A stretch of 64,000 bases of DNA. Origin: an uncultured Desulfocapsaceae bacterium. Lineage in GTDB: Bacteria; Desulfobacterota; Desulfobulbia; Desulfobulbales; Desulfocapsaceae. Every line of letters begins with the position of its first letter. The first letter of the stretch is position 1. A model generated the notes under the pieces. It saw only the letters and a program-made list of their open reading frames with translations, was not told the origin of the DNA and searched no databases. This document shows, in pieces, positions 9,667 through 61,666 of this stretch. Where the stretch lies: positions 9,700 to 73,699 of the forward strand of contig CAZMFP010000014.1 in the NCBI GenBank assembly GCA_964565605.1, given 5' to 3'. The position numbers and the translations under genes were made by a program.

Positions 9667-9729
9667 CTGATTATTAAGAAAGCTTTGATAACACTGGGTA
9701 TTGCCAAGGGAAGAATCATTGGTGATGAG
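9667..9729. repeat. Short form of the intergenic palindromic (MITE-like) element
   Basis: ctgattattaagaaagct..taacac.gggtattgccaa joined to ..gaagaatcattggtgatgag. This matches the two termini of the full elements at 50510-50727 and 53560-53775, with the centre missing. Confidence 0.45.
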
Positions 9730-11820: not shown

Positions 11821-12017
11821 ATCTATCTCCTGAAAATAAAAATTAGACATCATGCACTCAAACTGACAATTTGAGATTGTTGGACTAAAAAACGATGCTA
11901 TCCTCCTTCATCTTATCACAAGAATAACGGCGAAAAACATCCTTTCTATTTCTTAGTGCTCATAATTGTGAAAAAGTTCAAAAAAATGTTGAAAAACTAT
12001 GTGCCTTCCTCGATTAG

Positions 12018-12090
12018 GAATAATCCTTGACCGAAGACCAGGCAACAAACTGACAACGCCTGGTGTTAGAGTGAGCTTTTTGATTATCAG
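12018..12090. repeat. Half copy (one arm) of the intergenic palindromic element
   Basis: aataatccttgaccgaagaccaggcaacaaactgacaacgcctggtgttagagtgagctttttgattatcag aligns with the right arm of 53560-53775 (gtgatccttgaccgaaggctagccagacaaattggcagcacctcgtgttaggctgagctttcttggtaatcag). Confidence 0.45.
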
Positions 12091-17810: not shown

Positions 17811-17834
17811 TTTGTAGTTTTTTTATTTGCCGGA

Positions 17835-17900
17835 AAGCCCAGCCAAAGAGGAGCTGTTGTAAGTAATTTCATCCGGGCTGAGGATTATCGATAATCAAGC
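17835..17900. repeat. Possible short or degenerate copy of the intergenic palindromic element
   Basis: cccagccaaagaggagctgttgta...gggctgaggattatcgataatcaag resembles ctcagcc..aaaagaggtgttgtc and gctgagaatcattggtgatcaag of the full copies. Confidence 0.3.
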
Positions 17901-27481: not shown

Positions 27482-27556
27482 CCTGATGGCCAATTATTCT
27501 CAGCCCTGACAGTAATAGAGGTGTTGCCGGTTTGGCTGAGCTTTCCTGGCAACCAG
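27482..27556. repeat. Short form of the intergenic palindromic element
   Basis: ctgatggccaattattctcagccctgacagtaatagaggtgttgccggtttggc is joined directly to tgagctttcctggcaaccag. Both termini resemble those of the full copies. Confidence 0.45.
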
Positions 27557-34174: not shown

Positions 34175-34390
34175 TGTTCCCCAATGATCCTCAGCCTCAA
34201 TGACAAAAGAGCTATTGTCAGTTTAGTGGCGTGTTTCAACGACCAAGGATTAGGGCTTAAATGTATCTAGAGGTTAAGAAATATGGGAAATTTTATGTAT
34301 TATCCTTCCCAAAGATGTGATCCTTAAGCGAAAACTGGCAGCCCAATTGATAACACCTCGCATCAGGCTGAGATTTCAAAATAATTGGCA
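34175..34390. repeat. Full-length, diverged copy of the intergenic palindromic element
   Basis: The left arm is ccaatgatcctcagcctcaatgacaaaagagctattgtcagtttagtggcgtgtttcaa..caaggat. An AT-rich centre follows. The right arm is gtgatccttaagcgaaaactggcagcccaattgataacacctcgcatcaggctgagatttc. The orientation matches the 53560 copy. Confidence 0.5.
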
Positions 34391-36553: not shown

Positions 36554-36736
36554 GATAACGTAATTATATAGGATTGAGTTTTCCTTTTCCTTTTAACATA
36601 GTTACGAAAATAATCCAAAAACTCCCGCATGGGAATAGAGTCGTTACTCATAATTATTACCTCTAAACAGCAAATTCACGATAACGACCTGTAGCCTGTT
36701 GCTCTTTCAGCTTGAACGAGTCCCCTGCTGAGATGA

Positions 36737-36808
36737 TGATTACCAGGAAAGCTCAGCCCAATACGATCTATTGTCAGTTCTTCCGGCTAGTTTTCGGATA
36801 GGAATCTT
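36737..36808. repeat. Half copy (one arm) of the intergenic palindromic element
   Basis: gattaccaggaaagctcagcccaatacgatctattgtcagttcttccggctagttttcggataggaatc aligns with the left arm of 50510-50727. Confidence 0.4.
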
Positions 36809-47596: not shown

Positions 47597-47707
47597 TGAT
47601 ATGTATATCTTCTTAAAATATTTTAAAACGAATCAGCCTTCTGGTGTTACTGCCAATAACCCGGCTTCAGGTGTTATCAGCAAGGTCGCCGCCAAACATC
47701 TCAGATC

Positions 47708-50411: not shown

Positions 50412-50427
50412 AACAGCAACACTCACA

Positions 50428-50466
50428 CCGCATGGTTTTACCACCCGGCAAAACCATGCGGTTTAA
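50428..50466 (+). terminator. Probable intrinsic terminator after serS
   Basis: A 12-13 bp stem ccgcatggtttt / aaaaccatgcgg is followed by tttaat. The U-tract is short. Confidence 0.55.
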
Positions 50467-50509
50467 TCCTTCCCTGAACGTATAAACTCTAATTGGCTTA
50501 TAGTTTTAT

Positions 50510-50727
50510 CTGATTACCCATAAAGCTCAGCCTAACACGAGGTGTTGTCAATTTGTCTTGCTAGCCTTCGGTCAAGGATCACTCCTTGCTGAGAACAATA
50601 TAGATATTTTTCAATATTTCTTTACCGTTAGATACATTTCAACAATAATCTGTGATCCTTGAAATACGCCAGCCAAACTGACAACACCTCTTTTACCATC
50701 AAAGCTGAGAATCATTGGTGATCAAGT
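50510..50727 (+). repeat. Full-length intergenic palindromic (MITE-like) element, reference copy
   Basis: The left arm is ctgattacccataaagctcagcctaacacgaggtgttgtcaatttgtcttgctagccttcggtcaaggatcac. An AT-rich centre of about 70 bp follows. The right arm is gtgatccttgaaatacgccagccaaactgacaacacctcttttaccatcaaagctgagaatcattggtgatcaag. The arms are imperfect inverted repeats of each other. The element is flanked on both sides by tagttttat. Confidence 0.7.
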
Positions 50728-50766
50728 AGTTTTATATTCAGCTTATGCTTCTGTTAACCCGCTGAT

Positions 50767-51702
50767 TTAATCAATTGCCTGTTGAATAAGCAGATCAATA
50801 AGCGCTCCAAATCCCAACCCATGTTCAGCCGCTGCCTGTGGAAGCAAACTGGTTGGTGTCATGCCGGGAATAGTATTGGTCTCGAGCAGGGCTATTTCAC
50901 CATCATCTGTGACAATCATGTCTGTTCGTGAGTAACCCTGAAGGTGCAGACAGCGATGGGCCTCAACGCCGTATTGCTGAGCTCTGCTGCTCACGTCATC
51001 ATCAAGCTTTGCCGGGCAAATCTCTTTTGAAGCTCCTGGAACATATTTTGCCGTGTAATCAAAGAATTCAAATTCCTCACCAGGGATAATTTCAACAATC
51101 GGCAGTGGTTGCAGTATTTCTACACCAATGACACCGACGGTTATTTCTCTTCCTTTGATAAACCTCTCCAGCATGACCTCGGAGTCGTGTTCAAATGCCT
51201 TTTTTATTCCAGCTTGAAGCCCATCCACATCGCCAGCGATGGTCATCCCCAGACTTGAGCCCTCTCGAACAGGTTTTACCACAATAGGCAAACCAAGAGA
51301 GTCAACACATTCTTTTAAATCTACAGGTTCTCCTTCCAACAGCATCAACCAGTCGGCTACAGGCAAGCCGGCCAGCCTGTACATGAGCTTCGCCACATTT
51401 TTATCCATGGCCATGGCACTGCCTAAAACGCCTGAGCACTGATATGGAATGTCAAGCAGATCCAACAGGCCCTGAACACTCCCATCTTCACCCCATAGAC
51501 CATGGAGCAGAACAAAGGCAACATCAATATCCGCTGCATCGGCTACCAGACGACCCAGATCAACTGCCGGATCATATCGCTGGACAATATATTTTTTAAA
51601 ATCAATAACTTTTTCAACTTCGGCCGCTCCCTTCAGCGAGACTTCGCGTTCACCTGATTTTCCACCAGCTATCAAAGCAACCGTTTTCTTTGCTGTCTCC
51701 AT
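50767..51702 (-). CDS. ddl: D-alanine--D-alanine ligase
   Basis: The sequence has ALIAGGKSGEREVSL, the HG..GEDG motif (LHGLWGEDGSVQGLL), an ATP-grasp body, and EINTIPGMT as LETNTIPGMTPTSL. Confidence 0.9.
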   Translation of the reverse strand: METAKKTVALIAGGKSGEREVSLKGAAEVEKVIDFKKYIVQRYDPAVDLGRLVADAADIDVAFVLLHGLWGEDGSVQGLLDLLDIPYQCSGVLGSAMAMDKNVAKLMYRLAGLPVADWLMLLEGEPVDLKECVDSLGLPIVVKPVREGSSLGMTIAGDVDGLQAGIKKAFEHDSEVMLERFIKGREITVGVIGVEILQPLPIVEIIPGEEFEFFDYTAKYVPGASKEICPAKLDDDVSSRAQQYGVEAHRCLHLQGYSRTDMIVTDDGEIALLETNTIPGMTPTSLLPQAAAEHGLGFGALIDLLIQQAID

Positions 51703-52219
51703 TTACCCACTCCATGTTTATTTATCTGCTCTTTGCTGTATATCTCTCTCAATGAGACAATATTATTCGATATTTTCAAACAAGGGTATCTCTATTACAG
51801 TATGGAAAAAAAATTATTTGAGTAAATATCGATATGGCAAGAGTGAAATAATACACCACCCGGCAGAAATATTTCCATTCTTCTTCCGATCACTTTTCAG
51901 TCGGTGTCTTACAAAATGGTTTGAATCCGGTTACTATTCTGTACCATAGATCGCTTAACAAGCATGCCCATTAGCTTGGATATCATTTTTTAATCTCAAC
52001 AGTAGCGCATCTGAAGAATTGAAAAAGGGTTATGAACCAATAAGCTGCCAACAAGATATTCATTGACAATGCGAGAAGATATTCTTATAAAGGTATGTTT
52101 ATTGTTTGGTAAATGAGCTTCTCACTTGGCCGGAACATGCCACCGTAAGAGACGAACGGAACGGGCGTTATTTTGAAGTGAGTGGGAAATTAAGATTTGT
52201 TTTGATAACGGAGTAAAAG

Positions 52220-52414
52220 ATGATCGAAGTAGAAGTTCGGGGAGATCTCGAATATGCCATCAGACAGCTGAAGAAAAAGCTGCAGATTGACGGTATCAAG
52301 CGTGAGCTTAAAAGACGTGAGTATTACGAAAAACCGTCTATTAAGAAACGGAGAAAGCAGGCCGAAGCCCGTAGAAAACTCCGCAAGTTTAACCGAATGA
52401 GAAAATCGTTCTAG
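52220..52414 (+). CDS. rpsU: 30S ribosomal protein S21
   Basis: A 64-aa basic protein: MIEVEVRGDLEYAIRQLKKKLQIDGIKRELKRREYYEKPSIKKRRK... Confidence 0.9.
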   Translation: MIEVEVRGDLEYAIRQLKKKLQIDGIKRELKRREYYEKPSIKKRRKQAEARRKLRKFNRMRKSF

Positions 52415-52559
52415 GTTATCAGGAAAATACGGAAAAATTGCTACGAATAGATCCAAGGGTATTTAGCCCTGGAGAAGATTTTTCCGTTTTCCCTCTCCCG
52501 TTACACACTGTACAATCCGCATCTGAACTTCAGGCATCCTCCTTGTAAAGGACGCCCTA

Positions 52560-53486
52560 TTGACGAAAGAAGCCAGGGACAAACAACTATCCGACCACTT
52601 CCTCAGCTGCCGAGAGCTGTTTCTGCACTATATCATTTCCGAGCGGCAGCTCCTGGAAAACAGTATTAAGGCCTACGAGGCCGATATCAGTTTTTTTCTT
52701 CACTTTCTCTGTCAAAGTCGAACCACCAATCTCAACGATGTAACCGTTGAAATTATCCATCGTTTTCTCAACAGTTGTAAAAAGAAAAACATCTCCCACC
52801 GCTCTAATGCAAGGAGAATCTCTGCGCTGAAACTGTTTTTTAGTTTTCTGGCAACAGAGAACCTCATCAACCACAATCCTTTTCATTCCATTGATTTACC
52901 CAAAAGCGGACATACTCTTCCAAAAGCGCTGACACTTGATGAAGTGAGTCGTCTGCTGGAACTTCCGAAAGTACATACACCCCTTATTATCCGCAACTAT
53001 GCCATGCTTCATCTGCTGTACAGCTCCGGGCTGCGGGTCTCGGAGTTAGTAGGGTTGCCTCTTGCCGGCTGTAATATGACCTCTGGTTTCGTGCGAATCA
53101 TTGGAAAAGGAAACAAAGAACGGCTTGTCCCTTTTGGAGAAAGGGCGAAAGAAATGCTGACAACCTATCTTGAGCAAAGCCGTCCGGCCATCCTCAAGGG
53201 CAAACGTTCAAGCAGCCTCTTTGTCACCGGGCGCGCTCGTTCCATGACACGACTCAGGTTCTGGCAGATCATAAAAGAGGCCGGCCGGGCTGCTGGAATC
53301 AAAAAACAGATCAGCCCTCATATGCTTCGTCATTCATTTGCAACCCACCTTTTGGCCCATGGCGCAGATCTTCGTGCCGTTCAATTGATGCTGGGGCACT
53401 CGGACATTGCCACAACTCAGATTTATACCCATATTGATCAGGACCGACTAAAAACTATTCACAAGAAATTTCACCCCCGTGGCTGA
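52560..53486 (+). CDS. xerD: Tyrosine site-specific recombinase XerD (XerC/D family)
   Basis: ...SPHMLRHSFATHLLAHGADLRAVQLMLGHSDIATTQIYTH carries the catalytic RHRY signature. An N-terminal SAM-like domain is present. The start codon is TTG. The XerD versus XerC assignment is tentative. Confidence 0.7.
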   Translation: MTKEARDKQLSDHFLSCRELFLHYIISERQLLENSIKAYEADISFFLHFLCQSRTTNLNDVTVEIIHRFLNSCKKKNISHRSNARRISALKLFFSFLATENLINHNPFHSIDLPKSGHTLPKALTLDEVSRLLELPKVHTPLIIRNYAMLHLLYSSGLRVSELVGLPLAGCNMTSGFVRIIGKGNKERLVPFGERAKEMLTTYLEQSRPAILKGKRSSSLFVTGRARSMTRLRFWQIIKEAGRAAGIKKQISPHMLRHSFATHLLAHGADLRAVQLMLGHSDIATTQIYTHIDQDRLKTIHKKFHPRG

Positions 53487-53559
53487 GAAAATCTCCCTAT
53501 CAATCACCTGGCTGGTATGAGAAGCTTCTCAAACGGATATCAGCTTTTCTTAGTTTTTC

Positions 53560-53775
53560 CTGATTACCAATGATTCTCAGCCATAACGGTAAAAGAGGTG
53601 TTGTCTGTTTGGCTGGCGTATTTCAAGGATCACAAACTCTTGCTGGACTGGGTCTAAAGGTAAAGAAAAGTTAAAAAATAGATGTATTGACCTCAATTAG
53701 AAGTGATCCTTGACCGAAGGCTAGCCAGACAAATTGGCAGCACCTCGTGTTAGGCTGAGCTTTCTTGGTAATCAG
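53560..53775 (-). repeat. Full-length intergenic palindromic (MITE-like) element, inverted relative to 50510-50727
   Basis: The reverse complement aligns arm for arm and centre for centre with 50510-50727 at roughly 90 percent identity in the arms (by eye). It has 11-bp perfect terminal inverted repeats ctgattaccaa / ttggtaatcag and is flanked by tagttttt on both sides. Confidence 0.7.
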
Positions 53776-53902
53776 ATAGTTTTTTTTAACAACCGAACTC
53801 CTTCTGAAATTATCCGAAAAAACTGGTGCGTCATATCAGAAGAAATGTGGGCTAAATAGTGCAAGGGATTGCAAAAATTATGTGGAATGATAGACTTATC
53901 TC

Positions 53903-56572: not shown

Positions 56573-56854
56573 GCCTTGCCCGTGAGCATACCAGTGCTTA
56601 TCAATGCTAAGAGAAACGATGTTATCCAGTTCTCTTTGTTCTATCTTTCAGGTTTAAATGAGTACTCTTGTACTCTGCAAAGATAGTATCGATTTCTGTC
56701 AATGAACAAAACTGTTTACTACTGTACTCAGACAATATCAAGGAAGAGGAATGCTTAACAGGCCTGCCAAGCTGCTTACCCCTCTTCTTTGGCTGAGCTT
56801 CAGAAGTAATTTAATTAATTAACAAAAACCGCCTGAAAATATTTACTTTCTCAG

Positions 56855-61180: not shown

Positions 61181-61336
61181 GTCTACTCTTTTGGTTGAAT
61201 TGTCTCCATTCTCGAACCAGAAAAAAACACCCCTAGTTGATTAGGAAATGCTACCACTTATCCATTCATTTGAAAATGTTTTTTATAAAAACCCTATTCT
61301 TGCTCAAGATGAATAGTTCGCACAACCCCTCCATGC

Positions 61337-61552
61337 CTGATTACTGCCGGCCCCCACCCTGCACGACAAAAGAGGTGCCGTCAGTTTAGCTTCAGTATTT
61401 CAGGAATCATCTATTGTGGTTTAAATGCTCTCAAGGTGAGGAAGATATTAAAAAAGATTAGGAGTGTCACCCATGAAGCAATGGTTCTTACTTGCAGGCC
61501 AGATGGAAAAATTGCAGTACCTCATGTGTGGCAGAGCTTTCAGGGTCATCAG
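61337..61552. repeat. Full-length but strongly diverged copy of the intergenic palindromic element
   Basis: ctgattactgcc...cacgacaaaagaggtgccgtcagtttagcttcagtatttcaggaatca ... cagtacctcatgtgtggcagagctttcagggtcatcag. The architecture and key blocks are the same as in the 53560 copy. Confidence 0.4.
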
Positions 61553-61666
61553 AATCCTATATCATAAAATGGTGATATTTTGCAAAATGGTTTTATTCCT
61601 TTCTTCACCCAAATGACAGAAATCGATACCGGTTGAAAATAGCTGTCACATCAAAAACTCAATTTC

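Follow-up and report, generated by a model that had tools for sequence, protein, structure and literature searches.

The spacer between serS and ddl in an uncultured Desulfocapsaceae bacterium holds an imperfect palindrome that recurs in other intergenic regions of the same genome, and the question raised by this locus is whether such repeats are mobile DNA or structured RNA modules that serve the host. We addressed this question in a 64-kb window, by which we mean the whole stretch of DNA analyzed (C14:9700-73699 of a 3.8-Mb assembly in 80 contigs), in the remainder of the genome, and in related genomes. The reading that we favor, at a probability of about 0.92, is that the repeats are non-autonomous MITEs that carry terminal repeats of the IS1595 family (ISEc70-like, with CCTGATTACC ends) and are moved in trans by a DDE transposase encoded in the same genome. 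A preliminary description of the sequence had already suggested a non-autonomous, MITE-like transposon, and the terminal repeats, 8-bp duplications, empty sites, and partner insertion sequence (IS) described below show this suggestion to be correct. The full form is ~218 bp long, and short forms measure about 60-76 bp. The family is undescribed, but it is an ordinary kind of bacterial mobile DNA.

The reference copy and its relatives in the genome

An alignment of 67 genomic copies set the exact limits of the reference copy at T50509 and G50726. Members of the family start with (T/C)CTGATTACC and end with GGTAATCA(A/G)G, which constitute the terminal inverted repeats; the terminal base of the element is ambiguous, with T or C at the left end and G or A at the right end. 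The reference copy and its flanking repeats are as follows.

50501-50508, no strand: left copy of the 8-bp target-site duplication TAGTTTTA, 0 mismatches
50509-50726, plus strand: reference MITE copy of the young subfamily, 218 bp, starting TCTGATTACC and ending GGTGATCAAG (nhmmer E = 1.4e-71)
50727-50734, no strand: right copy of the duplication TAGTTTTA, 0 mismatches

The two-armed imperfect inverted repeat that had been recognized at 50510-50727 resolves into three complementary blocks that enclose an AT-rich center: 50511-50531 with 50704-50724 (76% complementary), 50539-50561 with 50668-50690 (87%), and 50572-50582 with 50652-50662 (100%). No ORF of at least 60 aa was found within 50412-50766, and the element is short and non-coding. 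Immediately 3' of serS, at window positions 50428-50467, lies a strong hairpin (ACCGCATGGTTTT...AAAACCATGCGGT) that is probably the serS terminator and that has no counterpart in the much shorter intergenic region of the sister species G001.

Copies in the window were located with an nhmmer profile made from the genomic copies. Four are full length, two of them well preserved (50509 and 53559) and two decayed (34175 and 61336). Together with the partial and short forms, the copies other than the reference are the following.

9667-9729, plus strand: probable short form of ~63 bp, both termini seen by eye only, no nhmmer match
11954-12084, minus strand: truncated 131-bp copy covering model positions 8-140 (E = 8.3e-20)
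17824-17898, plus strand: possible decayed short form (E = 1.4e-3 and 0.03)
27482-27556, minus strand: short form of ~75 bp, consisting of the left terminus (~24 nt) and the final ~52 nt of the right arm, with CAGCC microhomology (E = 2e-12)
34175-34390, minus strand: old degenerate full-length copy with decayed termini and without a recognizable duplication (E = 2.1e-47)
36736-36806, plus strand: solo left arm, model positions 3-72 (E = 2.4e-12)
53559-53776, minus strand: well-preserved full-length copy (E = 9.6e-70) with the duplication TAGTTTTT at 53551-53558 and 53777-53784, 0 mismatches
56695-56810, minus strand: weak remnant (E = 2.5e-4)
61336-61553, minus strand: old degenerate full-length copy (E = 2.8e-39)

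The profile supported all three of the additional full-length copies that the preliminary description had placed at 34175-34390, 53560-53775, and 61337-61552, and it also matched the short form given as 27482-27556 and the single arm given as 36737-36808, which is a left arm. A second supposed single arm (12018-12090) belongs to a real copy, but this copy is the 131-bp partial element rather than an arm by itself. At 9667-9729, the termini of a short form can be seen although the profile does not match there, whereas the probable short form at 17835-17900 and the possible remnant near 56770-56815 correspond to weak profile matches. A further possible remnant at 47632-47685 found no support in the profile search of the window.

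The two well-preserved copies lie in inverted orientation and bracket (50509-53776) ddl (50767-51702, minus strand) and a XerC/D-type recombinase gene (52560-53486, plus strand). We considered a composite transposon at this position and rejected it, since these genes occur in identical order in G001, where neither element is present; the ddl and recombinase genes are therefore native.

The claim that these copies represent a multi-copy family held genome-wide: blastn returned 67 alignments that were 180 bp or longer and 70-100% identical, and nhmmer identified 162 non-overlapping loci, of which 79 are full length and ~83 are partial or short. The family thus amounts to about 160 intergenic repeats and roughly 0.6-0.7% of the genome. 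About a dozen genomic copies share 90-98% identity with the reference. Rather than being confined to the window by a local duplication, the copies are dispersed across the genome, on more than 40 contigs. Genes were called crudely from ORFs of 110 aa or more, which were resolved greedily and together cover 84.5% of the genome. By these calls, 158 of the 162 loci fall in intergenic DNA, in a genome that is ~84.5% coding.

A short form of ~76 bp, made up of ~24 nt from the left end and the final ~52 nt of the right arm, which meet at a shared CAGCC, is present at 12 or more genomic loci, and many of these short forms have target duplications of their own. A ~60-bp form with its junction at AACAC and intermediate forms of 111-134 bp also occur. 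The short forms are microhomology deletions, and the junction common to the ~76-bp loci suggests that this form has been amplified on its own as well. Near a contig end, at C53:19734-20262, at least four full or partial copies adjoin one another, an arrangement that could mark a hot spot for insertion or could have arisen by nested insertions.

Target-site duplications and empty sites

Among the 79 full copies, the flanking 8-bp duplication was perfect in 19, carried one mismatch in 15, and carried two mismatches in 8. Duplications with no more than one mismatch were therefore present at 34 of 79 copies, against a chance expectation of ~5e-4 per copy, calculated from an intergenic base composition of 0.30 each for A and T and 0.20 each for G and C. 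The target logo of the 34 best copies is palindromic and AT-rich, with the octamer WAnnnnTW preceded by A (position -1, 26/34 sites) and followed by T (position +8, 27/34 sites); G or C was never found at duplication positions 0, 1, 6, and 7 in these 34 sites. The preference for WAnnnnTW explains why the repeats at the two best window copies, TAGTTTTA and TAGTTTTT, look alike, and the palindromic preference, which puts a T at +8, explains why the repeat appeared to be 9 bp long. The preliminary description had offered a target-site duplication at a preferred site as one explanation of this flanking repeat. That explanation stands, but the repeat is 8 bp rather than 9 bp, and the T that precedes CTGATTACC is part of the element.

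Contig C33 of G001 is collinear with the window, and in it the spacers that correspond to three of the full-length copies are empty, with the flanking genes kept.

Empty site of the reference copy, serS-ddl: 382 bp in this genome, 70 bp in G001
Empty site of the 53559 copy: 381 bp in this genome, 69 bp in G001
Empty site of the 61336 copy: 385 bp in this genome, 22 bp in G001

At the reference locus, G001 has one ATAGTTT at the empty site; this comparison is with G001 only, since the corresponding region of the second sister species, G002 (L065, C147:2550-2900), is partly masked as N. The G002 region orthologous to 61336-61553 (L122, C63:8250-8650) holds a short-form remnant where G001 has nothing, which reflects either independent hits in one spacer or an old insertion that was lost in G001. 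Three metagenomes of the same species (SRR31802800, SRR24302411, and SRR8146440) carry the insertion downstream of serS on contigs that end 26-28 nt into the element. Since the insertion is present in 3/3 metagenome assemblies, the copy downstream of serS is fixed in the species. Given the clear duplications and the empty sites, the elements are insertions.

Pairing of the arms

Although the elements insert, they could in principle be primarily host-functional structured RNA modules (sRNAs, mRNA-stabilizing or RNase III-target hairpins, or terminators) whose transposon features are incidental. The stability of the fold and the conservation of the arms argue for such a function. The reference copy folds as one long hairpin, with a free energy of -64.9 kcal/mol and a z score of -7.2 as RNA (-4.6 as DNA), and its two arms are mutually homologous over ~75 nt. 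Between the clade consensus sequences, the arms are ~95% identical while the ~70-nt center has diverged, and the arm interiors of ~50 nt are far better conserved between clades than the center. Moreover, three clade-level changes are two-sided and compensatory (A-U to G-C at 42-172, U-A to A-U at 50-164, and C-G/U-A at 74-145), compared with one that is disruptive (pair 52-162).

RNAalifold found no consensus structure when applied to all 105 copies because decayed copies break pairs, and the pairing analysis was instead based on the fold of the consensus sequence. In a column-shuffle control, pairing exceeded the shuffle maximum by a small amount (0.873 versus 0.860), and the number of covarying pairs was not in excess of the shuffle mean (11 versus 8.8). 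Since covariation at the level of individual copies is weak, only the clade-level changes are informative.

The placement of the copies, however, is not that expected of RNA modules. The 41 tandem, 18 divergent, and 12 convergent intergenic regions occupied by full copies agree with the background intergenic length (61%, 24%, and 14%, respectively), such that no preference for a type of gene neighborhood was observed relative to this background. In tandem contexts, 20 copies have the same orientation as the flanking genes and 21 the opposite orientation, i.e., there is no bias. No terminator-like site was found, and an Rfam search of the window yielded no match at the gathering score, its sole sub-threshold hit being a chance match to MIR172 (E = 0.95). 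Three promoter-like matches occur in the region, one outside and two inside the element, a number near that obtained with shuffled sequence (mean, 1.4; SD, 1.1). In addition, singleton mutations are not rarer in the arms (0.63-1.0 per column) than in the center (0.42 per column), which implies that inserted copies appear to decay neutrally. Together with the duplications and empty sites that mark the elements as insertions, these observations make it very unlikely that the repeats are primarily RNA modules, and they speak against the sRNA or terminator module that the preliminary description had raised as an alternative. An RNA-level effect may nevertheless be a secondary role of the elements.

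Returning to the MITE reading, we infer from the apparently neutral decay that the constraint is exerted on source copies, which continue to transpose, and not on the inserted copies. Short-patch correction within the hairpin could also mimic compensation. We tentatively raise, as a rather improbable extension of the MITE reading, that the arms (~50 nt past each 24-nt repeat) are selected for pairing in source copies and that the resulting hairpin or cruciform promotes mobilization by the IS1595 transposase, for example, by drawing the two ends close to each other. The conserved arms with their diverged center, the excess of two-sided over disruptive changes, and the uniform decay of inserted copies along the element are the observations in its favor. 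An alternative variant of this arm-selection proposal would have the hairpin act as RNA on neighboring transcripts at ~160 sites.

A partner insertion sequence and related elements

As had been noted, no transposase is encoded in the window, and the search for an IS with matching terminal inverted repeats that had been suggested led to an IS1595-family element elsewhere in the genome, present as one intact copy and as a series of contig-end stubs. The intact copy (C12:92212-93267, 1056 bp) extends from TCTGATTACC to GGTAATTAGA, is flanked by the 8-bp duplication AACTTGTT, and contains one uninterrupted ORF of 315 aa that matches NF033547 (IS1595 family transposase, 8e-60), PF12762 (2e-35), and the PF12760 zinc ribbon (1e-15). 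The C12 element accordingly has each of the IS1595-family features for which we tested, namely, an N-terminal zinc ribbon, a DDE_Tnp_IS1595 catalytic domain, a length of ~1 kb, and an 8-bp duplication. As for the stubs, eight contig ends break off ~50 nt inside an element whose end reads (T)CTGATTACCAATAAAGCTCAGCAATAAATTTTTTCATTGGGTGCTCACTCT (end A), and nine break off in (T)CTGATTACCAACATTCCTCAGCAAGCTTAAGTTGCTGATATGG... (end B). These recurring stubs indicate that ~8-9 near-identical copies of a longer repeat exist whose interior was lost from the assembly. The left end of the C12 element resembles end A, with GGGTGCTCACTCT common to both, and end B encodes the transposase C terminus QLKLAEECW, which is homologous to the C terminus ILKLAEKWW of C12 and is followed, as in C12, by a stop codon, here located in GGTAATCAG. 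Judging from the 50-nt stubs and the diverged but intact C12 copy, the multi-copy IS is presumably intact.

The termini of the MITE are identical to the ends of the partner IS at 18-22 of the 24 terminal nt, with the right end of the MITE matching end A at 19/24 and end B at 18/24 positions. A simple correspondence of the left MITE end with IRL and the right end with IRR was not supported by the identity matrix. In a local alignment, the MITE interior scored at the shuffle level against the C12 element; since similarity does not extend beyond ~24 nt, the MITE is not a simple internal-deletion derivative of the IS.

The end pattern of the multi-copy IS did not occur in 80 genomes belonging to the same family or in metagenome contigs. 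An element of the same kind, flanked by the duplication AATATTTA, is present in the complete genome of a member of another genus (G007). The nearest named relatives of the C12 transposase are ISEc70, ISPma1, and ISAeca5, at 50-56% amino acid identity (54% for ISEc70). ISEc70, as annotated by NCBI on an E. coli plasmid, has the ends CCTGATTACC...GGTAATCAGG and the 8-bp duplication ATCCCTTT. Ends of the CcTGATT type characterize this IS1595 subgroup (ISfinder), and the ends found here are of that type when judged against those annotated for ISEc70. The likeness to the three named IS extends to the CCTGATTACC...GGTAATCAGG ends, the 8-bp duplication, and the position of the TAA that ends the transposase gene, which falls within the right inverted repeat. 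In contrast, these IS are ~1.05 kb long and encode their own transposase, whereas the MITE shares ~24 nt per end with them and has no ORF.

Contig C70 (7,706 bp) stops at both ends in an outward-pointing end A of the multi-copy IS1595-type element, implying that a 7.7-kb segment is bracketed by two inverted IS copies; this segment may be a composite transposon. At C70:158-570 there is also a degraded fragment of an IS1595 transposase. Across the assembly, contig ends fall into more than 20 groups, each defined by an identical 25-mer, and several groups are offset versions of one repeat, which indicates that several multi-copy IS families had their interiors dropped from the assembly.

We also considered whether the MITEs belong to a different transposase family that makes 9-bp duplications (IS4/IS10-like or IS1-like), given that a 9-bp repeat can be read at most young copies, which have a T before CTGATTACC and a T after the right octamer, and that the ends of IS10 likewise begin with CTGA. 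However, the repeat is exactly 8 bp at the copies where C precedes CTGATTACC (C14:79931, C13:56800, C32:22516, and C28:30014), and the duplications of full insertion sequences that have these ends are unambiguously 8 bp long, on which grounds the IS4/IS10-like partner was dropped. The T at +8 is accounted for by the palindromic target preference, and the sole PF01609 (IS4-type) hit in the genome is one unrelated gene, leaving a 9-bp family hardly credible. Local segmental duplication, or REP/BIME palindromes spread by a RAYT transposase without target duplications, would also produce many intergenic, palindromic copies, but REPs are RAYT-associated, measure 20-40 nt, and lack target duplications, and the chance that either accounts for 218-bp elements with defined terminal inverted repeats and 8-bp duplications on so many contigs is negligible.

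The Correia elements of Neisseria and the ERIC/IRU elements of Enterobacteria are intergenic imperfect palindromes of ~100-200 bp that form long hairpins, exist in full-length and internally deleted size classes, and are confined to a genus or family. The Desulfocapsaceae element resembles them in being an intergenic palindrome with a long hairpin, two size classes, and a narrow host range. Nevertheless, Correia elements duplicate TA, and the 8-bp duplication observed here excludes membership in the Correia (CREE) group. We know of no partner transposase for Correia elements and of no defined partner for ERIC, whereas the Desulfocapsaceae element has an identifiable partner IS, and it shares no sequence similarity with either.

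An IS1595-derived MITE with an 8-bp duplication has already been published and is a precedent for the Desulfocapsaceae family, namely, the ISHwa6-related MITE of Haloquadratum walsbyi (165 bp, 7 copies, 25-bp inverted repeats, 8-bp direct repeats; Kamoun et al. 2013, PMC3852290 Table 4). Both are short, non-coding, and multi-copy and combine IS1595-family terminal repeats with 8-bp duplications. The family described here differs in that its host is a bacterial genus of Desulfocapsaceae, its copies are far more numerous (162 loci), and its arms are long (~75 nt), mutually complementary, and extend well past the ~24-nt repeat. It also includes a distinct short subfamily of ~76 bp, and the two MITEs have no sequence relationship outside the ends.

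Among 41 related genomes, the family is carried only by the three species of this genus, the sister genomes being uncultured Desulfocapsaceae MAGs. A scan of 185,579 species genomes for the arm motif recovered only the two sister MAGs and three extra hits, and a scan of metagenome contigs produced six hits; the element profile matches none of these nine additional sequences. The family is therefore confined to one genus, with clade-specific subfamilies: copies of this genome and of the sister species form separate clades, with a mean identity of ~0.75 within and 0.64-0.65 between clades. G001 and G002 share some orthologous insertions, the duplications of which have mostly decayed, and their IS1595 transposase is present as fragments only. 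While the sisters thus have transposase fragments, older copies, and decayed duplications, this genome has a multi-copy IS and young MITE copies with clean duplications. The element appears to be long established in the genus and to have been amplified anew, recently, in the species that holds the multi-copy IS. In another Desulfocapsaceae genus (G015, L033:1505-1700), a MITE of ~196 bp that is bounded by TCTGATTACCCATAAAGCTCAGCC...GATAATCAGA and flanked by the duplication TTTTTTTA/TTTTTTCA shares its terminal repeats with the 218-bp family but has an unrelated interior, indicating that these IS ends gave rise to MITEs more than once.

In the mechanism that we propose, the IS1595-family transposase encoded elsewhere in the genome would bind the ~24-nt ends of the MITE, make staggered 8-bp cuts in the target, and insert the element. 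The young subfamily, whose copies are up to 98% identical and have perfect duplications, would have been amplified recently in the species, and, as far as sequence can tell, the MITE family is probably recently active. Its restriction to intergenic DNA would reflect the AT-rich target preference combined with selection against gene disruption, and the long complementary arms would be kept as an aid to the transposition of source copies, not as a service of inserted copies to the host.

The MITE/IS pair is clean and apparently recently active, with a well-defined target consensus in a poorly studied transposase family. If a hairpin formed by the arms indeed promotes mobilization, it would be a structural requirement not described for the IS1595 family, and the conserved, compensating arms, set against a drifting center, are a small clue to what MITEs need beyond terminal repeats. 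For the Desulfocapsaceae genome itself, the family and the insertion sequences account for many assembly breaks, and the MITE copies are usable as strain or species markers in the genus.
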